Shown: piece after piece, positions 22,979 through 31,670 of the stretch
Layout: every line of letters starts with the position of its first letter
How positions within the stretch are numbered: position 1 is the stretch's first letter
Source of the DNA: a virus
Taxonomy: Duplodnaviria; Caudoviricetes
DNA length: 64,000 nucleotides
Direction: 5' to 3' (one strand)
IMG/VR virus record: IMGVR_UViG_3300025735_000007
Location: 1-64,000 of that record
Program-made: the position numbers and the translations under genes
Notes under the pieces: model-generated
The model's database searches: none
Told to the model about the DNA's origin: nothing
What the model saw: the letters and a program-made list of their open reading frames with translations, nothing else

Positions 22979-23005
22979 TTCTTGCCTTAGATGGAGCCTG
23001 AATAT

Positions 23006-23023
23006 ATAGTAACGACTGACTTA
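23006..23023. promoter_or_regulatory. 18-bp operator in the divergent helicase/ParB intergenic region
   Basis: atagtaac-ga-ctgactta. Confidence 0.7.
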
Positions 23024-23039
23024 TTTCAGCGGATGCATT

Positions 23040-23702
23040 ATGGCAGGCAACCCTACGAAGTTCCAGGTCGAGCAGCGCAGCGTGTCTGTCGATATGCTGC
23101 GACCGAACAGCTGGAACACCAACCAGATGACCCCGGAGAACGAGGCCAAGCTCGATGTCTCCGTCGACCGCTTCGGCGTCTACAAGCCGATCGTCGTGCG
23201 CCCCCATCCGAGTGGCGAGGGCTACGAAATTCTGGGCGGCCAGCATCGCTGGGAATCGGCGCGCCGCAAAGGCATGCTCGAAGTGCCCATCGTCAACGTC
23301 GGCCCGGTCAGCGACACCGTCGCGAAAGAGATCGGTCTCGTCGATAACGGCCGCTACGGTGAAGACGACACCCTCGCCCTGTCGCGCCTGCTCAAAGAGC
23401 TGGGCGCCGAGGACGTCGGCAGTTTCCTGCCCTATACCGACTCCGAGCTCGAAAACATTCTCGCAGCGTCAAGTATAGATTTGGACGACCTTGACAAGCT
23501 GGATCAGACCGAAATGCCTGACCTGTCAGGCGCGGGCATCGGCGCCACCCATCAGGTGATGCGCTTCAAGGTGCCCGTCGAGGACGTCGCATGGGTCACA
23601 AGCGCCATCGAGCGCCGGCAGCGCGAGAAGGGTTTCACCACCGAAGACTCCATGACGAATGCTGGCATGGCCTTCGTCGATCTCATGAAGGCTTACAAAT
23701 GA
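23040..23702 (+). CDS. ParB/Srx-like N-terminal domain protein
   Basis: PNSWN.N.M...G...PIVVR...YEILGGQHRW. Confidence 0.85.
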   Translation: MAGNPTKFQVEQRSVSVDMLRPNSWNTNQMTPENEAKLDVSVDRFGVYKPIVVRPHPSGEGYEILGGQHRWESARRKGMLEVPIVNVGPVSDTVAKEIGLVDNGRYGEDDTLALSRLLKELGAEDVGSFLPYTDSELENILAASSIDLDDLDKLDQTEMPDLSGAGIGATHQVMRFKVPVEDVAWVTSAIERRQREKGFTTEDSMTNAGMAFVDLMKAYK

Positions 23703-24172
23703 CACAGATGACACGCTACGTCGGCACCAAAGCCGTCATGGCCCGCGCGATGACGCGCGGCGAATACAACGCCTACCGCGGGTGGACCATCCCCGCGAAC
23801 GAAGACCCAAACGAGCCGGGCTACCTGGTCGAGTATCTCGACGGCGGCAAGCCGAACATCGAAGGTCATCAGGGCTACGTCAGCTGGTCGCCGGCCGATG
23901 TGTTCGAGCGCTCATATCAGCTAGGCGCCGCGAAGAGCTTTGGCGATGCGCTGATCGCGTTGAAAGCGGGGATGCGCGTCGCACGCGTGGGCTGGAATGG
24001 GAAAGGCTTGTGGCTTTCGCTGCGGCTCGCGAAGGGTGACGTGATGGACTGCGGCACGGGTGGTGAGTTTCCCGAGGCAGACTGGATCGGCATGAAAACC
24101 GCAGACAACAAATTCGTGCCTTGGCTTGCATCGCAGACCGACGTGCTCGCAAACGACTGGGTGACCCTGTGA
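23699..24172 (+). CDS. Two-domain protein with C-terminal DUF2829 (Tad2-like, Thoeris anti-defence sponge family)
   Basis: SFGDAL.ALK.G.RVAR.GWNGKG...MKTA....VPW.ASQTD.LA.DW. The N-terminal domain reads YVGTK...GYLVEY.DG...YVSWSP..VF..Y. Confidence 0.8.
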   Translation: MTQMTRYVGTKAVMARAMTRGEYNAYRGWTIPANEDPNEPGYLVEYLDGGKPNIEGHQGYVSWSPADVFERSYQLGAAKSFGDALIALKAGMRVARVGWNGKGLWLSLRLAKGDVMDCGTGGEFPEADWIGMKTADNKFVPWLASQTDVLANDWVTL

Positions 24173-24444
24173 GCAAGCCGACCGGCTTCGCGCGCATCCC
24201 GCGCGCCGAATTTCTCTACCCCGAATGCCAGAGCTGCTATTTCCATAACCGGGAACCGGCGATCTGCGAGAACTGCGACAACGGCTCGGAATACGACCCG
24301 GACGATGATCTCGAGGACAAGCTCTCGGCGCGCAAGGCCGCCGTCGTGAGGTTCTTTCGCAAGATCCAGACACCCCTGCCGCCCGGGTTCCTGCCCGATG
24401 TGCTGGAACCGGCGATCCAAGAAAAGGAGCTCGAAGCAGCATGA
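24169..24444 (+). CDS. Small Zn-finger-like protein
   Basis: CQSC...CENC. GTGA/ATGA coupling on both sides. Confidence 0.7.
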   Translation: MSKPTGFARIPRAEFLYPECQSCYFHNREPAICENCDNGSEYDPDDDLEDKLSARKAAVVRFFRKIQTPLPPGFLPDVLEPAIQEKELEAA

Positions 24445-25082
24445 GCGTTACCCGCACAGAAGAAACGCGCCGCGTCGCGGACCTCGTTCCCTACACGAAG
24501 AACGTCAAGAAGCACGACGCCGCGCAGGTCGCGAAGATCGTGGAGTCAATCCAGCAGTTCGGCTGGACCCAGCCCGTCGTCATCGATGAAAGCAACGTGA
24601 TCATTGCCGGCCACGGCCGGCGGCTCGCTGCCATTCAGCTCTCCATCCCCGAAGTGCCTGTCGTCGTGCTGTCGGGCCTGACCGACGAGCAGAAACGCGC
24701 GCTGCGCCTGGCGGATAACCGCACCAACGAGGGCGGCATCGACACGCTCATGTTCCGCGACGAGATCGAGGGCATCGAGGGTCTGCTGGTCGGCATTTTC
24801 GACACGAAGGAGCTGGAGTTCTCCGTCGCCGATCTGGGCGAGCTGAACGAAGCCGCGTTCGTGCCGGACGTGGCCGAAGCAGTCGAGGCGCAGGAGCAGG
24901 CCGCGCACGCGAAGGCAGACGAGATCGGGTCGCGCCGCGTGCCGCTCACGAAGGTGTTCGGCTTCAAGGACATCGCGGGCGCCGACGAGATCCACGTCTC
25001 GCGCTTCATGGCGCGCGCCCAGGCTGTCACGGGTCTCGCTGGCGCCGATGCGTTGGTGGCCTTCCTGCAAACCCTCTCATAA
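24441..25082 (+). CDS. ParB/Srx-like N-terminal domain protein (type often associated with DNA-modifying enzymes)
   Basis: LVPY.KN.K.H...Q...I..SI..FGW..P..ID....IIAGHGR..AA...LRLADNR. Confidence 0.88.
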   Translation: MSVTRTEETRRVADLVPYTKNVKKHDAAQVAKIVESIQQFGWTQPVVIDESNVIIAGHGRRLAAIQLSIPEVPVVVLSGLTDEQKRALRLADNRTNEGGIDTLMFRDEIEGIEGLLVGIFDTKELEFSVADLGELNEAAFVPDVAEAVEAQEQAAHAKADEIGSRRVPLTKVFGFKDIAGADEIHVSRFMARAQAVTGLAGADALVAFLQTLS

Positions 25083-25097
25083 GTCACATGTGACTTA
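25080..25097. promoter_or_regulatory. 18-bp operator, perfect palindrome
   Basis: taagtcac-at-gtgactta, between the ParB stop and the ABC ATPase start. Confidence 0.85.
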
Positions 25098-25103
25098 CAA
25101 GAT

Positions 25104-25820
25104 ATGACGACATACACAATCGACAAGCGTTTCCATACCCGCGTGGCGCGCAGCCAGCGGGTCGTGGAAGTCGCTGAAGCGTTCGGGCTCGGCCTGGACG
25201 ACAAGGAGTTCGTGATCTTCGACGACCTGAAGCTCGACGTGGCGCAGGGCGACGTGATCTACATCACCGGCCAGTCCGGCAGCGGCAAATCGCTGCTGCT
25301 GCGCGAGCTCTCGGCCCAGATGGCAAGGGAAGGGCAGAAGGTCGCCAACCTGGATGAGGTGGCGATTGACCCGGACGTGCCGCTCATTGACCAGATCGGC
25401 ACGTCGACCAACGACGCGATCCGGCTGCTGTCGATCGCCGGCCTGAACGATGCCTACCTCTTCATTCGCAAGCCCGGCGAGCTCTCCGACGGCCAGCGCT
25501 ACCGCTTCAAGCTCGCGAAGGCGATCGAGAGCGAGGCCGACGTGTGGGTCGCCGACGAGTTCATGGCCGTGCTCGACCGCACCGCGGCCAAGGTGATCGC
25601 CTACGCGCTGCAGAAGACCGCGCGCAAGGTCAACGCGACCGTGATCGTTGCGACCACCCACCTCGATCTCGTGGAAGACCTGCAGCCGTCTCTCTACATC
25701 GAGAAGCGCTACCGGGAGAAGCTGCGCATCGAAGCGTTCACAGCGCTTTCTGACGCGTCGGAGGGGCATCGCGCGATGACACGCGACGAAGCCTATGAAC
25801 TTTTGAAAAGGATGGCCTGA
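25104..25820 (+). CDS. Soluble ABC-family ATPase (no membrane partner)
   Basis: Walker A GQSGSGKS, signature LSDGQ, Walker B WVADEF, H-loop TTH. Confidence 0.9.
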   Translation: MTTYTIDKRFHTRVARSQRVVEVAEAFGLGLDDKEFVIFDDLKLDVAQGDVIYITGQSGSGKSLLLRELSAQMAREGQKVANLDEVAIDPDVPLIDQIGTSTNDAIRLLSIAGLNDAYLFIRKPGELSDGQRYRFKLAKAIESEADVWVADEFMAVLDRTAAKVIAYALQKTARKVNATVIVATTHLDLVEDLQPSLYIEKRYREKLRIEAFTALSDASEGHRAMTRDEAYELLKRMA

Positions 25821-26149
25821 TGAACACGCTTTACGAAACGACCGTTGCCGCCTCGAAGCAGGTGCCGCAGGTCGTGATTTTTACGGCACCGTGGTGTGGC
25901 CCGTGCAAGATGCTCAAGCCCGCGCTCGCGGCACTGAAGGCCGATTACGGCTTCGCGCTCACCGAGCTGAACGTCGAGGACTTCGACGCGGCCGAGCTGC
26001 AAACGCTCGGCGTGCGCAATGTGCCTAACGTGCGGGTGCTCCACAACACGGTCGTGAAGGCCCAGTTCGTCGGCGCGCGCACGAAGGCGCAGGTCGAGGA
26101 ATGGCTCACGGCACATGGCGTGATCGCACGCGGGTTGAGCTTCGAATGA
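25820..26149 (+). CDS. trxA: Thioredoxin
   Basis: FTAPWCGPCK active site and cis-Pro motif VRNVP. Confidence 0.9.
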   Translation: MNTLYETTVAASKQVPQVVIFTAPWCGPCKMLKPALAALKADYGFALTELNVEDFDAAELQTLGVRNVPNVRVLHNTVVKAQFVGARTKAQVEEWLTAHGVIARGLSFE

Positions 26150-27126
26150 CTGCGCCGGCCACCGCCCTGAACCTCGCCGGGCCGATCACTGCGTCCGACG
26201 ACCCGGATTCCCCGATCCTCGCCTGGCGTGACCCGGCGGCCGGCACGCGCCCGCTCTCGCTGATGAAGCACATGTATGTCGAGCGCGGCACCCTCGAAGA
26301 CTGGCAGCTGCTCCACGAGCTGCACTACAAGGCGAGTCAGAACGGGATTGGCCCGCGCTACGTGCGCCTCGTGATCGATGATGGCGTCGCGCCCGCGCAG
26401 ACGATCGGCGTGATGGTGTTCACCGTGCCCAAGCCGCTCGATTCTGGCCGCAATCAGGTGTTCCCGCACATGCGACCGAACCAGAACGGGCGCGACAACC
26501 GGCTCATCAACGTGCAGCGCATGGCGTGGATCAACAAGAACCTGATCCTCTCGTCGCGCACGGTGCTCGACACCATGTATCGCGGCGGCGGCATTGCCTA
26601 CCGGTTCAAGAACATCGGCTACCGCCTGATGGGTTTTCGCTACGTCGAGAGCCGCAGTTCGATGAGCCGCTACAACCCGTTCTCGATCAAGGCCGGCATG
26701 CGCTTCGTGAAGCCGAAATCAGCGCCCGCCTTCGAAACGGGCCTTGCCTTCTTCGCGCGCCACTTCAAGAGCCCGGCCTACGACTACGTGGCGATCAAGC
26801 AGGAGATCGAGGCGATGCCCGATTACCTGCGCGAGCACACGTTGAAGGAGCTGCGTGCCTTTTACTACCGCAACAGCTCGATGGAAAAGTCGGGCGACAA
26901 CCGGCTGAACGGCACCTCGCGCGTCGAGCAGATGGAGCTTGGCTACCTCCTGAAGCAGACCCAGCAGCTCGTGTTCGGCGCAACGGTGTATGCCGCTTGG
27001 ACCAATCCTGACTGGGACTCGGACACGCGTGCCATGCGGCCGCTGCCCGCGCGCATCCCGCTTTCCGCTTTCGAAAACCAGGGCGTCAACGAGCCGTTGC
27101 GCCTCGACCTTCTGGAGACTCGATGA
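26146..27126 (+). CDS. GNAT-fold acyltransferase, Mom-like
   Basis: N-terminal LHY, motif A SRTVLDTMYRGGGIA, motif B-like MSRYNPF..KAGM. Confidence 0.7.
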   Translation: MTAPATALNLAGPITASDDPDSPILAWRDPAAGTRPLSLMKHMYVERGTLEDWQLLHELHYKASQNGIGPRYVRLVIDDGVAPAQTIGVMVFTVPKPLDSGRNQVFPHMRPNQNGRDNRLINVQRMAWINKNLILSSRTVLDTMYRGGGIAYRFKNIGYRLMGFRYVESRSSMSRYNPFSIKAGMRFVKPKSAPAFETGLAFFARHFKSPAYDYVAIKQEIEAMPDYLREHTLKELRAFYYRNSSMEKSGDNRLNGTSRVEQMELGYLLKQTQQLVFGATVYAAWTNPDWDSDTRAMRPLPARIPLSAFENQGVNEPLRLDLLETR

Positions 27127-27344
27127 AAACGACCGTCAGCACGCTGTGCATCGTCGGCACCAAGGGCGCGCTGTCGCCCTGGACGATGGAGCCGATCGAA
27201 GACGCGAACGCGGTGCGCGGCATGTCCTACGACTTCGTGATGTGGGTGCGCACGCCCACGCCCGAGGAATACCGCACGGTGAACGCGACGCTGAAAACGT
27301 CGGAGGTGGGCGATCATTTCTGGCTGTGCCGGCGGCCGCGATGA
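27123..27344 (+). CDS. Hypothetical protein
   Basis: GGAG RBS, ATGA coupling. Confidence 0.65.
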   Translation: MKTTVSTLCIVGTKGALSPWTMEPIEDANAVRGMSYDFVMWVRTPTPEEYRTVNATLKTSEVGDHFWLCRRPR

Positions 27345-27784
27345 ACCTCACGACCAAGCAGATCGAGATCATGAAGGTGGTCGCCGCGGGCGCCATCGCG
27401 GGCGCCGTGGTCGACCTCGATCAGCTGCTCGAGCGCCTGCCTTACACGACCACGAAGGAAAGCCTGCAGTTCTCGCTGCGCGCAATCGAGCGGCACGGGC
27501 TCATTGACCGGTCGATGTCCGAGCACCGCCGCGGCCGCGCGCGGCGCCTGGTGAAGCCGACGGATCTCGGCATGGCCGTCATCAATGGCACAGGCCGGCC
27601 GCCGCCGGGTCCGGGCGCCGCGGTGGGTTCGCGATCGGAAAAGATCCTTCCCGAGCCGGTGTCTCACGGGAAAGCAGAGGATCTGCCGGTAAGCGAAGAC
27701 TTACCCCAGCCGGCGATCCTTTCCCTCCCGGAGCTGACTTTCTCCGAGCCGGAGCTGGTCCTCGAAGAGCAGTTCATTGGTTAA
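27341..27784 (+). CDS. Winged helix-turn-helix DNA-binding protein
   Basis: LT.KQ.EI......LDQL.ERL....KESLQFSLRAIE.HGLI.R....RGR.....T.LG. Confidence 0.75.
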   Translation: MNLTTKQIEIMKVVAAGAIAGAVVDLDQLLERLPYTTTKESLQFSLRAIERHGLIDRSMSEHRRGRARRLVKPTDLGMAVINGTGRPPPGPGAAVGSRSEKILPEPVSHGKAEDLPVSEDLPQPAILSLPELTFSEPELVLEEQFIG

Positions 27785-27806
27785 AAAGCGAGCAGATTTT
27801 GTAAAT

Positions 27807-27922
27807 CTTACCACTTGTCACTTTTCAGGGGTTCCCTCTATATATAACCCTTCTTTTTAAAACCTACAAAAACTACATTCAAAAAGCTAAGGGAACCACC
27901 CGAAAAGTGACAAGTAAGTAAG
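27807..27922. repeat. Long imperfect inverted repeat enclosing an AT-rich core (element 1)
   Basis: acttgtcacttttc (27813-27826) pairs with gaaaagtgacaagt (27902-27915). ggttccct (27830-27837) pairs with agggaacc (27890-27897). Confidence 0.8.
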
Positions 27923-28007
27923 GTCTGTGAAAGGTTGATCCCGGTTAGGGGAAGGAAGTAGTTGTGATGAAGAGAAGCGCGCGGGTGGATAAGTCCGTTC
28001 ACAAAAA

Positions 28008-28050
28008 TAAGTCACAGGTTATTTACAAGTCCGCTGCGGCCGGCTATAGT
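28008..28050 (+). promoter_or_regulatory. Operator plus sigma70-like promoter for the packaging operon
   Basis: Operator taagtcac-ag-gttattta (28008-28025) overlaps TTTACA-17 nt-TATAGT (28022-28050). Confidence 0.75.
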
Positions 28051-28074
28051 GAGCTCCTCAAGCATCACCTCCAA

Positions 28075-28107
28075 GGGGCAGACCACAAAGGCTGCCCCAT
28101 TTTTTTT
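28075..28107 (+). terminator. Intrinsic terminator in the terS leader
   Basis: ggggcag/ctgcccc stem followed by 8 T. Confidence 0.65.
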
Positions 28108-28121
28108 ACGGGAATCCAATC

Positions 28122-28787
28122 GTGACCGAAACGACGACGCTCCCGAAAAAGACCGGGGGCCGCACCGCAGGCAGCAAGTCGCTGACCGAGAAGCAGAAGG
28201 CGGAAGCCTGTGCGCTCTATCAGGCAGGCGAACTGACGCTCGACCAGCTCGCCAAGCGCTACGGGCGCACGCCGCGCGCGATGAGTGCGCTGTTTGCGAA
28301 GGAGGGCGTCAAGAAGGGCGAGAAGCGCGCAGAAGTGCACGCCGCGATCACCCAGCAGGTCAACCAGCAGATCGCGGGTGACGCGAACCTCATCGCGGCC
28401 AAGATTCGCGAGACGAAAGACTCGCACTACGCCGCGGCGAAGGTCATCGCGGGCCTGATCCAGCGCCAGCTCGTTGACGCCCAGAAGAAAAACCAGCCGT
28501 TTGCGACTGTCCAGAACGAAATCAAGACGCTCAAGCTCGCGGCCGAGGCGCTCGCGACGCTGCGCGAGGAGCGGTTCGTGATTCTGGGCATTGCCGACGG
28601 CGAGAAGGATGACGCCGAAGACCTGCCGGAGCTCGGCATTCAGGAAATGACCGCCGACCAGATCCTCGAGATGCAGCAGCGTCAGGACGATAGTGGTCTC
28701 GACATGGGCGACGCCGAGGCGATGCCGGTCGCGCCAGAGGGCGATGACGATGTGATCGACGTCGAGGACGGCAATGCAGCTGCGTGA
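28122..28787 (+). CDS. terS: Terminase small subunit (putative)
   Basis: N-terminal HTH, helical middle, acidic tail. Immediately upstream of TerL. Confidence 0.7.
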   Translation: MTETTTLPKKTGGRTAGSKSLTEKQKAEACALYQAGELTLDQLAKRYGRTPRAMSALFAKEGVKKGEKRAEVHAAITQQVNQQIAGDANLIAAKIRETKDSHYAAAKVIAGLIQRQLVDAQKKNQPFATVQNEIKTLKLAAEALATLREERFVILGIADGEKDDAEDLPELGIQEMTADQILEMQQRQDDSGLDMGDAEAMPVAPEGDDDVIDVEDGNAAA

Positions 28788-30060
28788 ACCGGGGCTGCCG
28801 ACCGTTACGGCGATCGCGAGCGAGCTGCAAACCATTTTCCTTCATCCGAAGCAGATGGAGGTGTTCCGCTCGCCGCACCGCTTCCGCGTCGTCACGGCCG
28901 GCCGGCGCTGGGGCAAGACGCAGCTGGCGAAGGTCTCGCTGATCAAATACGCGAAGGTCAAGAACCGGCTCGTGTGGTATGTCGCGCCGTCTTACCGGAT
29001 GGCGAAGCAGATCATGTGGCCGGATCTGGTCGCCTCGATTCCGAAGCGCTGGATCAAAAAGATCAACGAGACGACGCTCACCATTATCCTGGTGAACAAC
29101 ACGCGCATCGAGCTGAAGGGCGCCGACAACCCCGACTCGCTGCGCGGCGTGGGTGTGCACTTTCTCGTCATGGACGAAGTGCAGGACATCAACCCCGAAG
29201 CCTGGAAAAAAGTGCTGCGCCCGACGCTCGCGTCGACCGGCGGCCACGCGCTTTTCATCGGCACACCCAAGTCCTACAACTTCCTCTACGACCTGCACGT
29301 TCTCGGCCAAGACCCGAAGAACCAGATTCTCGGGCGGTGGAAGAGCTGGCAGTTCCCGACGATCACGTCGCCGTTCATCCCGGCCTCTGAAATCGAAGCC
29401 GCGCGCGCCGACATGGACGACAAGTCGTTCAAGCAGGAGTTCGAAGCCTCGTTCGAGACGATGAGCGGCCGCGTGTATTACCCGTTCGACCGCAAGGTCC
29501 ATGTGGGGAGCTATCCGTTCAACCCGTCGCTGCCGATCTGGGTGGGGCAGGACTTCAACATCGATCCGATGAGTTCCTGCATTCTCCAGCCGCAGGAAAA
29601 CGGCGAGGTGTGGGTGGTCAACGAGCTGAGCCTGAAGTCCTCGAACACCGAGGAGGTCTGCGACGAGCTCGAGCGCCTCTACTGGAAACTGGTCAAGCGC
29701 GTGACGATCTTCCCCGATCCGGCCGGCGGCTACCGGCAGCACGCGCGCGGCGAATCCGACGTCGAGATTTTCCGCCAGAAGGGCTTCAAGAACGTGGTCT
29801 ACCACAAGAAGCACCCGCCGGTGGCAGACCGCGTGAACGCCGTAAATCGCATGCTCAAAAGCGCCGACGGCAAGATCCGACTCAGGGTCGACAAGTCGTG
29901 CAAGGAAGTGATCCGCGCGCTCGAGCAAACGATCTACGAGGCGGGCGGCCGCGAAGTGGACAAGAGCATGGGTGTCGATCACATGGGCGATGCGCTGGGC
30001 TATCCGGTCCAATACATGTTCCCGGTGCGCGAAGTGACCATTGCAGGCGTCTCCATTTAA
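28774..30060 (+). CDS. terL: Terminase large subunit
   Basis: Q-motif HPKQ, Walker A AGRRWGKT, Walker B VMDE, GTP coupling motif, nuclease GQDFN...DH.GDA. Confidence 0.95.
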   Translation: MQLREPGLPTVTAIASELQTIFLHPKQMEVFRSPHRFRVVTAGRRWGKTQLAKVSLIKYAKVKNRLVWYVAPSYRMAKQIMWPDLVASIPKRWIKKINETTLTIILVNNTRIELKGADNPDSLRGVGVHFLVMDEVQDINPEAWKKVLRPTLASTGGHALFIGTPKSYNFLYDLHVLGQDPKNQILGRWKSWQFPTITSPFIPASEIEAARADMDDKSFKQEFEASFETMSGRVYYPFDRKVHVGSYPFNPSLPIWVGQDFNIDPMSSCILQPQENGEVWVVNELSLKSSNTEEVCDELERLYWKLVKRVTIFPDPAGGYRQHARGESDVEIFRQKGFKNVVYHKKHPPVADRVNAVNRMLKSADGKIRLRVDKSCKEVIRALEQTIYEAGGREVDKSMGVDHMGDALGYPVQYMFPVREVTIAGVSI

Positions 30061-30068
30061 CACTAGAA

Positions 30069-30086
30069 TAAGTCACCCGTGACTTA
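30069..30086. promoter_or_regulatory. 18-bp operator with perfect half-sites
   Basis: taagtcac-cc-gtgactta, upstream of the portal gene. Confidence 0.85.
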
Positions 30087-30104
30087 TCGAAGCACAAGGC
30101 ATAC

Positions 30105-31670
30105 ATGGCAGGCTTCTCCCAGAAACAGCTGAAGGATTTCATCAAGCGCCGACATCCGCTCTACGAGGCGATGGAGGCCCATTGGGATTTCCTCGAGGCG
30201 ACGTATGAAGGTGGTCGCGCCTGGTTCCAGCAGAACCTCCACAAATACGTGAAGGAGGGCGACCAGGAGTTTCGCCATCGCCTGCAGCGCGCATACCGGT
30301 TCAACCACACGCGTGAGGTGGTCGATCTGCTGGACAAGTATGTCTTCAAGATGGACATCCAGCGCAACGACGATGCACCCGACTACCTGAAGGAGTTCTG
30401 GAAGCGCTCGACGCTCAACGGCTCGCCGATCGTCGATTACATGAAGCGCATCAGCAACCGGACTTCGACGCTGGGTCGCGTGTGGATCGTGGTCGATTCG
30501 ACGAAAACCGAAGAGGTGCAGTCCAAGGCCGATGAGAAGGCGGTAGACGCGCGCGTCTACTCCTACATCGTCAAGCCGCAGCACGCGCTCGACATGAGCT
30601 ACGACGAGCTCGGACAGCTGCGCTGGGTGCTCTTCTACGAGACCTCACGCGATGACGCTGATCCGATCACCTCGTCAGGTGTCGTGGCCGATCGCTATCG
30701 CCTGTGGACGCGCACGACTTCGCAGGTCTTCACGGTTGACACGAGCAAGCGCGGTGCGCCGCAGATCATCCCGGGTCCGGTGGTTGAGCACAAACTCGGC
30801 GTCGTGCCGGTGTTTGCGGCCGACAACGTGATCTCAGACGACCCTTACACGTCGCCGGCGCTGATCGCCGACGTCGCGTATCTGGACCGCGCGGTTGCGA
30901 ACTACCTGTCGAACCTCGACGCGATCATCCAGGACCAGACGTTCAGCCAGCTGGTCATCCCTGCACAGGCTTTGATGGCCGGCGAAGAGGCGTTCGACAA
31001 GCTGGTGGAAATGGGCACGAAGCGCATTTTCACCTACGACGCCTCTGGCAACGGCAAGCCCGAATTCATTTCGCCGGACGTGAAGCAGGCGCAGCTAATC
31101 CTCTCGGTCATCAACAAGACGATCAACGAGATCTACCACTCCACGGGCCTCGCCGGCGAGCGCACGAAGGAGGACAACTCGCAGGGCATCGACAACAGTT
31201 CGGGCGTCGCCAAGGCGTATGACTTCGAGCGCGTGAACTCGCTGCTCGCGGCCAAGGCCGACTCGCTGGAACAGGTCGAGCGGAAGCTCTGCGAACTGGT
31301 CGCGCTCTACAACAGCAAGAAGCTGGATACGGCGCCCGACGCAACCGCGACGACATCGACGAAGCCGATGGTCGCCTACCCGAAGAACTTCGACGTTCGC
31401 GGGCTCTACGACGAATTCGACATTGCCGCGCGCCTCGCGCTGATCGAAGCACCCGATGGTGTGCGCCGTCAGCAGATGGAAGCGGTGATCGAAAAGCTCT
31501 TCCCGATGGTCAAGGATTCGATCATCAGCAAGATGAAGGATGAGCTAAAGACCTGGCCGCCAGTGGACGCACTGGCAGAACCAGGCGCCGGCGCATCACC
31601 GATGTCCACCGGCGAGATTCAGAAGATGGGCGGAAAGACCATTTCCAACCAGATGTTGAAGTCCACGTAA
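30105..31670 (+). CDS. Portal protein
   Basis: 521 aa gene after TerL. Contains HKLGVVPV and SGVAKAYD motifs, typical of SPP1-like portals. Confidence 0.85.
   Translation: MAGFSQKQLKDFIKRRHPLYEAMEAHWDFLEATYEGGRAWFQQNLHKYVKEGDQEFRHRLQRAYRFNHTREVVDLLDKYVFKMDIQRNDDAPDYLKEFWKRSTLNGSPIVDYMKRISNRTSTLGRVWIVVDSTKTEEVQSKADEKAVDARVYSYIVKPQHALDMSYDELGQLRWVLFYETSRDDADPITSSGVVADRYRLWTRTTSQVFTVDTSKRGAPQIIPGPVVEHKLGVVPVFAADNVISDDPYTSPALIADVAYLDRAVANYLSNLDAIIQDQTFSQLVIPAQALMAGEEAFDKLVEMGTKRIFTYDASGNGKPEFISPDVKQAQLILSVINKTINEIYHSTGLAGERTKEDNSQGIDNSSGVAKAYDFERVNSLLAAKADSLEQVERKLCELVALYNSKKLDTAPDATATTSTKPMVAYPKNFDVRGLYDEFDIAARLALIEAPDGVRRQQMEAVIEKLFPMVKDSIISKMKDELKTWPPVDALAEPGAGASPMSTGEIQKMGGKTISNQMLKST

Follow-up and report, generated by a model that had tools for sequence, protein, structure and literature searches.

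Positions 23040-27784 of the viral genome IMGVR_UViG_3300025735_000007 encode a module that includes two stand-alone ParB/Srx proteins (ParB1 and ParB2), a soluble ABC-type ATPase and a GNAT-fold protein, and that adjoins the DNA-packaging genes. The window referred to throughout is the whole stretch analysed, the initial 64 kb (64,000 nt) of this genome. Domain fusions in related proteins are strong evidence that ParB, ABC and GNAT work together as one machine, and we tentatively favour, with a confidence that falls just short of even, the view that the core of the module is a nucleotide-gated, DNA-directed acyl-CoA transferase machine acting around packaging. The core consists of ParB1, ParB2, the ABC ATPase and the GNAT protein, and probably also of a small winged helix-turn-helix (wHTH) protein. 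Acyl modification of a DNA base is the leading hypothesis for its function and has been predicted previously: an ABC ATPase-GNAT system was proposed to acylate a DNA base by Iyer et al. (2013), as cited in PMC7824862. An earlier reading of this stretch from its letters alone, hereafter the original prediction, had proposed a packaging-linked DNA-modification system with a GNAT resembling the Mom protein of phage Mu, an enzyme that hypermodifies adenine; the GNAT, driven or loaded by the ABC ATPase, would acylate bases (or a packaging protein), and a thioredoxin would supply redox control.

The fusions were found amongst the relatives of the GNAT protein, which amounted to 212 cluster representatives among the 1.84 billion searched. 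Many of these relatives are proteins of 450-500 aa that match in their C-terminal half; Pfam placed an ABC domain N-terminal to the match, and gave weak GNAT matches on the matching part itself. The N-terminal half of one such protein, P0154, shares 46% identity with the phage ABC ATPase (E 2e-61), and that of P0289, a Nitrososphaerota protein from metagenome-assembled genomes, shares 43% (E 8e-58). The GNAT protein is collinear with the C-terminal half of fused ABC-GNAT proteins at 25-31% identity, with the motifs and the helical insertion described below in common. Because both halves are homologous to and collinear with a single chain, the phage ABC and GNAT genes can be identified, from sequence comparison, as a split form of a COG2401-type single-chain protein, for which the JGI name of close homologues is ‘ABC-type ATPase with predicted acetyltransferase domain’. 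A hidden Markov model built from the phage ParBs matched the N-termini of further relatives, and so identified ParB-ABC-GNAT triple fusions of 640-700 aa (P0170, P0226, P0172, P0214, P0186 and L180:7011-9011); ParB1 itself aligns with the N-terminus of P0170 (27% identity, E 2e-8). Both kinds of fusion bear out the earlier suggestion that the ABC ATPase and the GNAT function as a pair. The split form had been thought unusual, but every one of the 31 isolated relatives has it.

Fused forms were also found on long archaeal contigs of up to 648 kb. Matches on genome contigs were mostly generic ABC ATPases, which were set aside, and the only family members among them were L022-L030 and L041. Two fused proteins have additional domains. 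P0207 (847 aa) contains an intein with a LAGLIDADG homing endonuclease directly after the Walker B region of its ABC domain. P0162 and its cluster (665 aa, Nitrososphaerota) carry a C-terminal TFIIB-repeat (cyclin-like) domain (PF00382, 3.3e-9), which hints at a role linked to DNA or to transcription factors in archaea.

The assignment of the 326 aa protein to the GNAT fold, already made in the original prediction, holds. The protein had no match in Pfam and none in a phmmer search of PDB sequences. However, its AlphaFold2 (AF2) model, computed from an alignment of 51 sequences, has a predicted local distance difference test (pLDDT) score of 90.8 and matched many GNATs at a Foldseek probability of 1.00. 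In a VIA search the best Z was 11.0, hundreds of GNATs matched at Z 10-11 with a root-mean-square deviation (rmsd) of ~3 Å over 125-150 aligned residues, and 534 chains matched at Z of at least 8. The acyl-CoA motif A (RGGGIA, residues 146-151) and motif B (NPFSIKAG, residues 177-184) are both present, and the region matched by a profile search against the PDB was the motif A region of known GNATs. Among the 51 diverse sequences the polar residues H60, R102, R138, R146 and E168 are invariant, and G147 and G149 are nearly so. The retention of canonical motifs A and B argues for acyl-CoA as the putative donor. The core of the protein is strongly basic (net charge +15; family median +12), which fits a polyanionic substrate. 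A helical insertion of ~80 residues lies between helix 4 and strand 6.

The ABC ATPase retains the full set of catalytic motifs: Walker A (GQSGSGKS at 56), signature (LSDGQ at 127), Walker B (VWVADE at 147), D-loop (AVLD) and H-loop (TTH), with a PF00005 score of 50.1 bits against a cut-off of 25. All genes between 21248 and 31670 could be accounted for, and no permease or binding-protein gene was among them, as had been noted from the sequence at the outset. A role in transport was rejected, as there is no cognate permease or binding protein and the closest relatives are fused to GNAT rather than to membrane domains.

Both ParB proteins contain the GxxRxxxA motif with the Box II arginine, in ParB1 as GGQHRWESA (residues 66-74) and in ParB2 as GHGRRLAA (residues 57-64). 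ParB1 matched PF02195 (6.5e-13, 49 bits) and phrog_723 (1e-53). ParB2 matched phrog_930 (2.4e-68) and phrog_498, the ParB N-domain of methyltransferases (9e-35); its PF02195 match was slightly under the cut-off (6.6e-5, 23.3 bits). The C-terminal half of each protein has a net charge of -12, and Pfam gave no match to the parS-binding HTH_ParB domain in either at E of 0.1 or below. We rejected a canonical partition ParB on the grounds that no helix-turn-helix (HTH) was detected, the C-terminal halves are acidic, and there is no ParA in the operon.

Linkage of the module to packaging genes extends well beyond this virus. A survey of neighbourhoods, as had been suggested for this locus, found the same order in five isolated phages, Salmonella phage SSU5, Rhizobium phage RHEph10, Pseudomonas phage nickie, Stenotrophomonas phage BUCTxx99 and Xanthomonas phage JGB6: a helicase on the opposite strand, then ParB, ParB, ABC, a variable slot, GNAT, a second variable slot, wHTH, a terS-like gene, terL and portal. 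SSU5-like phage-plasmids, nickie, RHEph10 and BUCTxx99 resemble our locus from helicase to portal, with identities of 57-63% for ABC, 37-41% for GNAT and 57-62% for terL, but they have no thioredoxin and mostly no Tad2-like gene, and their ABC/GNAT slot holds other small open reading frames (ORFs) or is empty. In 50,697 phage records, all 31 isolates with a terL of at least 56% identity carry the GNAT gene, and these are exactly all of its carriers; it was found in 0 of the next 45 terL relatives in the same records (identity of 43% or less). Among the fused forms, sampled as 80 IMG/VR viral loci with a G+C content of 29-61%, terL lies on the same strand and ends directly upstream of the ABC-GNAT gene in 49, and is present somewhere in the locus in 54. 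Several fused-form loci have terL directly downstream instead, and one Nitrososphaeria contig has terL, capsid, portal and ABC-GNAT together. As terL is upstream in some loci and downstream in others, the terminase linkage survives rearrangement, and it is general beyond this phage. The co-occurrence of module and packaging genes in relatives is upheld by the isolates with close terL genes and by the fused loci.

Within the clade formed by the window and its close loci, identity is 86-100% for GNAT, 82-100% for ABC, 84-100% for terL and 72-100% for portal. Conservation of GNAT and ABC that is at least terL-like, together with the intein in the ABC domain of P0207, is typical of genes under strong purifying selection. 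Some fused ABC-GNAT genes have as downstream neighbours genes for Amidoligase_2 (E 1e-49 to 1e-60), adenylosuccinate-synthetase-like (PurA/PurZ-type) or radical SAM/SPASM proteins (L105:3645-4517, L107:9516-10379, L160:9482-10558 and L130:9580-11667), which are of kinds typical of base-modification pathways.

A number of published systems provide precedents for the parts of such a machine. One phage DNA thymine dioxygenase becomes active only with the help of a ParB that lacks a DNA-binding domain, and pathways of this kind co-occur with ParB (27%) and with terminases (19%) (PMC13229309). GTP binding is known for a protein in which ParB is fused to an acetyltransferase (PMC12704722). Mom is a GNAT able to acylate DNA, and in TmcA/NAT10 an NTPase is coupled to a GNAT that acetylates a nucleobase (PMC13219725). 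In the mechanism that we propose, the two ParB/Srx proteins, which have acidic C-terminal halves and no HTH, would keep the enzyme on DNA as adaptors or activators that depend on NTP. The ABC ATPase would dimerize on ATP and present or gate the substrate, and the GNAT would move an acyl group from acyl-CoA to the exocyclic amine of a phage DNA base, near the time of packaging. The resulting acyl mark could protect or label the genome. We infer the substrate, the acyl donor and the product of the module alike. A more specific version, which we regard as possible and hold more loosely than the general one, is that ParB-ABC-GNAT uses an acyl-CoA to install a novel DNA acyl modification (for example, N4-acyl-cytosine or N6-acyl-adenine) in a nucleotide-gated reaction tied to packaging. 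The modification would be a core trait of the SSU5/nickie/RHEph10 group and of many fused-form viruses of archaea and bacteria, and the thioredoxin would have been recruited in this clade as a structural, redox-independent component.

Several observations weigh against DNA acylation. In the literature we found no experimental paper on this module, and no report of a modified nucleoside for any module-bearing phage. A ParB was present in only 1 of 90 fused-form loci. The helical insertion of the GNAT protein has a net charge of 0 and is not basic, and the Foldseek and VIA matches do not distinguish among GNATs that act on DNA, RNA, protein or small molecules. Since the terL genes are homologous, common ancestry could account for part of the terminase linkage. 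Lastly, within the lineage the module is universal and conserved to a terL-like degree, whereas anti-restriction genes are typically patchy; a role in morphogenesis or packaging would fit this pattern as well.

The thioredoxin (WCGPC at residues 25-29) occupies the ABC/GNAT slot in 15 of 15 members of the window clade (the window and 14 close loci), and its CGPC motif is invariant. Its identity across the 14 close loci is 41-99%, against 86-100% for GNAT, so it is evolving faster than its neighbours. The slot has no thioredoxin in distant lineages: in RHEph10 it holds a Tad2-like gene and a 66 aa ORF, in SSU5 and nickie unrelated small ORFs, and in BUCTxx99 nothing. By this comparison, the thioredoxin is a clade-specific insert in a variable slot. 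ParB1, ParB2, ABC, GNAT and wHTH contain zero cysteines over ~1,145 residues, and in six clade relatives the first four of these proteins have 0-1 cysteines, none conserved. Disulfide-based control of these five proteins by the thioredoxin is unlikely, because they lack cysteine. Outside the clade, relatives of the GNAT contain 1-8 cysteines, and the cysteine-free state coincides with the thioredoxin-bearing clade. Beyond the window, the genome encodes the large subunit of a class I ribonucleotide reductase (92321-94597) and a thymidylate-synthase-family protein (96647-97630). Class I ribonucleotide reductase is a usual client of thioredoxin. The client here may be the phage ribonucleotide reductase or the four-cysteine protein of the operon, or the thioredoxin may be a redox-independent subunit. 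The thioredoxin ends in five residues, GL[S/D]FE, that do not vary among the 15 clade members in an otherwise variable protein (26120-26149 in the window); they could be a docking tail, or could be constrained by the overlapping translation start of GNAT. Amongst isolated phages the thioredoxin has only distant homologues, in Burkholderia jumbo phages (38-39% identity), which are uninformative on the module.

Against this background, a Mom-like scheme of adenine hypermodification, taken from the original prediction, with the ABC-GNAT pair under thioredoxin redox control, appears very improbable. The GNAT fold, a helical insertion at the topological place at which Mom has one, and a match to the Mom structure 8bv8 are in its favour, as is the retention of the thioredoxin and its invariant CGPC throughout the clade. 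However, the 8bv8 match (Z 10.1, rank 19, 153 residues, rmsd 3.8 Å) lies within 1 Z unit of the other 49 among the best 50 and is tied with hundreds of generic GNATs, and Mu Mom showed no similarity to the profile of the 51 GNAT sequences (hhalign probability 0.7%, E 0.079). Mom takes its acyl group from Gly-tRNA(Gly), works without a partner, depends on the essential residues R111, S124 and R151, and makes no use of acyl-CoA (PMC13219725), whereas the acyl-CoA motifs are kept here. The GNAT therefore does not look specifically Mom-like. Redox control fares no better, with no cysteine in the core proteins or wHTH for the thioredoxin to reduce, no thioredoxin in any other module-bearing lineage, and a class I ribonucleotide reductase elsewhere in the genome. 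Somewhat less improbable, although still decidedly so, is a non-enzymatic, partition-like role, in which the ParBs and ABC would organize or segregate the genome of a phage or phage-plasmid, or aid DNA recognition by the terminase, with the GNAT as a ligand sensor. Many of the relatives are SSU5-type phage-plasmids, the ParB fold is a nucleotide switch (PMC12704722), and the module is conserved like core genes. Yet these ParBs have neither an HTH nor a parS-binding domain, RHEph10 has a separate ParA, and the cofactor motifs and the five polar residues of the GNAT are conserved in the 51 sequences as in an active enzyme.

Two further possibilities keep the acyltransferase and change its substrate. 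An RNA enzyme resembling TmcA/NAT10, which we judge improbable, would carry out ATP-dependent acetylation of a cytidine or some other base in RNA of the host (tRNA or rRNA) or of the phage, and so bias translation or escape defences that target tRNA. It would follow the same NTPase-GNAT logic, and both NAT10 and TmcA are among the Foldseek matches; the presence of fused forms on long archaeal contigs raises a possible cellular housekeeping role, and one archaeal locus is near an aminoacyl-tRNA synthetase gene. However, TmcA and NAT10 are outside the best 50 Z-scores, no tRNA gene was found in the entire genome, which weakens the case for a phage tRNA substrate, and an RNA substrate offers no obvious reason for the terminase linkage or the ParB fusions. 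A protein substrate is doubtful but deserves more serious consideration. The ABC-GNAT pair, with help from the ParBs, would then acetylate a protein of the virion or of packaging (the terminase, the portal, the capsid or a protein that is ejected), or else a DNA-bound protein of the host, and would thereby tune packaging or take over the host. RimI, NatA/Naa50, GCN5 and HP0935, which are protein N-terminal or lysine acetyltransferases, are among the best structural matches; the adjacency to terL and portal and the core-gene-like conservation would suit such a role, and acetylation of host proteins by phage GNATs has precedents such as Rac of phiKMV-like phages (as cited in PMC7824862). The structural ties extend to all GNAT classes, and so weigh neither way; no protein-substrate-binding module was identified, and the ParB fusions together with the ParB precedents (PMC13229309) point to DNA. 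DNA-directed acylation remains our preferred reading.

The genome that carries the module is a single contig of 106,295 bp with ~62% G+C. It encodes a terminase, a portal, a Pol III alpha-type polymerase, SbcCD, a ligase, an integrase, a class I ribonucleotide reductase and a thymidylate synthase, a gene content that identifies it as a large tailed phage or phage-plasmid; the tyrosine integrase (69546-70811, beyond the window) suggests a temperate lifestyle. The nine + strand genes of the module are arranged head to tail in the order ParB1, Tad2-like (DUF2829), four-cysteine zinc ribbon, ParB2, ABC ATPase, thioredoxin, GNAT, 73 aa ORF and winged helix (Table 1). Seven of the junctions are overlaps of 1 or 4 nt, and one, between ParB2 and ABC, is a gap of 21 nt. 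A consensus scan placed promoter-like sites only in the 61 bp divergent region upstream (+ strand 22982-23010, - strand 23029-23001; 9/12 consensus matches each, and consensus matches only) and in the 337 bp gap ahead of the terS-like gene (28022-28050, 10/12). The module looks like a single operon, apart from but adjoining the terS-like, terL and portal genes (28122-31670), of which the first overlaps the start of terL by 14 nt. The original prediction of a tightly coupled operon was sound in this respect, and all of the genes that it named are real and present on the + strand; it had missed the Tad2-like gene (23699-24172) and the 73 aa ORF (27123-27344), and had placed the module directly before the terminase, where in fact the 337 bp gap with its promoter-like site intervenes, followed by the terS-like, terL and portal genes. 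The sole non-overlapping junction of the operon contains a perfect 10 bp palindrome, TCACATGTGA, at 25084-25093, which is not enriched above chance within the window.

Table 1. Features of the ParB-ABC-GNAT module and its flanks (positions in the window; ‘.’, no strand)
Feature	Position	Strand	Basis or remark
SF2 (DEAD/DEAH-type) helicase, 576 aa	21248..22978	-	Divergent, conserved neighbour of the module
Divergent intergenic region, 61 bp	22979..23039	.	Promoter-like sites on both strands
ParB1: ParB/Srx N-terminal NTP-binding domain and acidic C-terminal half	23040..23702	+	PF02195, phrog_723
Tad2-like (DUF2829) protein with extra N-terminal domain	23699..24172	+	PF11195 4.1e-21; phrog_872 3e-55
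Four-cysteine zinc-ribbon-like protein, CQSC...CENC, 91 aa	24169..24444	+	Direct reading
ParB2: ParB/Srx N-terminal domain of the DNA-methyltransferase-fused type and acidic C-terminal half	24441..25082	+	phrog_930
Soluble ABC-type ATPase, 238 aa	25104..25820	+	PF00005 5.6e-13; phrog_293 9.6e-48
Thioredoxin, 109 aa	25820..26149	+	PF00085 5.2e-16 (59 bits); TIGR01068 1.2e-14
GNAT-fold acyltransferase (predicted), 326 aa	26146..27126	+	phrog_886 1.3e-100; AF2 model
73 aa ORF, variable slot	27123..27344	+	ATGA overlaps at both ends
Winged-helix protein, residues 1-85 and disordered acidic tail	27341..27784	+	phrog_900 8e-22; AF2 model
Intergenic region, 337 bp	27785..28121	.	Promoter-like site 28022-28050; precedes packaging genes
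terS-like DNA-binding protein	28122..28787	+	phrog_867 9.7e-41
Terminase large subunit (terL)	28774..30060	+	57-62% identity to annotated terL of SSU5, RHEph10, nickie, BUCTxx99
Portal protein	30105..31670	+	43-50% identity to annotated portals of RHEph10, nickie, BUCTxx99, JGB6

The wHTH protein at the end of the operon, correctly named from the sequence, has an H-H-H-hairpin topology in its AF2 model, with a pLDDT of 76-90 over residues 1-85. Its best Foldseek matches were AF1382, MarR and PadR (target-normalized TM 0.74-0.77, rmsd 2.0 Å); AF1382, MepR, HosA and PadR aligned with an rmsd of ~2 Å over 82 columns. Homologues are found at the equivalent position in SSU5, nickie and BUCTxx99. 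The helicase on the other side of the module has partial NCBIfam matches to helicase C-terminal domains (dnd_restrict_1, RadD and DpdF), and shares 40-50% identity with its positional counterparts in SSU5, RHEph10, nickie and BUCTxx99.

The thioredoxin, the Tad2-like protein, the zinc ribbon and the 73 aa ORF are accessory passengers in variable slots, outside the core. The Tad2-like gene is absent from SSU5, nickie and BUCTxx99. It lies between ParB1 and the zinc ribbon here and between ABC and GNAT in RHEph10 (L001:6687-6989), two distant lineages, and the module seems to be a favoured landing site for small accessory (perhaps anti-defence) genes. The four-cysteine protein, for which the best start is a GTG at 24169 that creates a GTGA overlap, is 58-83% identical across the clade and had no family match in Pfam, PHROG or NCBIfam. 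RHEph10 gp084 (L001:4799-4981, 60 aa), which is also located between the ParBs, has the same CxxC...CxxC spacing, a similarity missed by tblastn; the corresponding slot holds a cysteine-free 53 aa ORF in nickie and no gene in SSU5 or BUCTxx99. A CxxC...CxxC protein may be a semi-conserved component of the module. Some clade members lack the 73 aa ORF, but most keep it (36-100% identity), and it had no family match in Pfam or PHROG.

If DNA acylation by this module is confirmed, phage DNA modifications would gain a new class and the module would be the first DNA acyltransferase to be gated by ATP, present in hundreds of viruses that include phage-plasmids of enterobacteria. In the isolates the module genes are annotated as ‘ParB-like partition protein’, ‘ABC transporter’ and ‘ABC transporter ATP-binding subunit’, labels that we regard as misannotation. 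As the module is carried by cultured phages, its function is directly testable. The module itself was already known from computational prediction; what this locus adds is that it is not specifically Mom-like, that the thioredoxin is not part of the core, and that the split architecture is normal.

The closest known proteins are those of the COG2401 or ‘MK0520’ type, in which an ABC ATPase is fused to a predicted acetyltransferase. Both halves are homologous to and collinear with our genes, and the fused forms are likewise viral and terminase-linked. They differ in being a single chain, where our locus has two genes with a thioredoxin gene between them, and in the company that they keep: two stand-alone ParBs, a zinc ribbon and a wHTH accompany ABC and GNAT here, and the module is upstream of terL rather than downstream of it, as the fused gene is. 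The ParB-dependent thymine dioxygenases (5mYOX and its cognate ParB; PMC13229309) and the ParB_N-DNA methyltransferase fusions (phrog_498) share the principle of an HTH-less ParB/Srx protein that partners a DNA-modifying enzyme, often near a terminase; our module differs in that an ABC-GNAT pair is the partner, in its two distinct ParBs and in having a predicted activity. TmcA/NAT10 also combine an NTPase-coupled GNAT with acetyl-CoA and the exocyclic amine of a nucleobase. However, their ATPase is a helicase-type P-loop enzyme rather than an ABC protein, they carry a tail dedicated to tRNA binding and act on RNA, and their absence from the best 50 Z-scores speaks of no specific structural likeness to our protein. 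Mom, finally, is like our protein a phage-encoded GNAT fold with a DNA target, on which Mom acts and for which our protein is predicted, and the helical insertion after helix 4 (HTH-like in Mom) is the sole peculiarity that they share. Unlike Mom, to which it has no sequence or profile similarity, the protein described here keeps motifs A and B, and is accompanied by an ABC ATPase and ParB partners where Mom acts alone with a charged tRNA.

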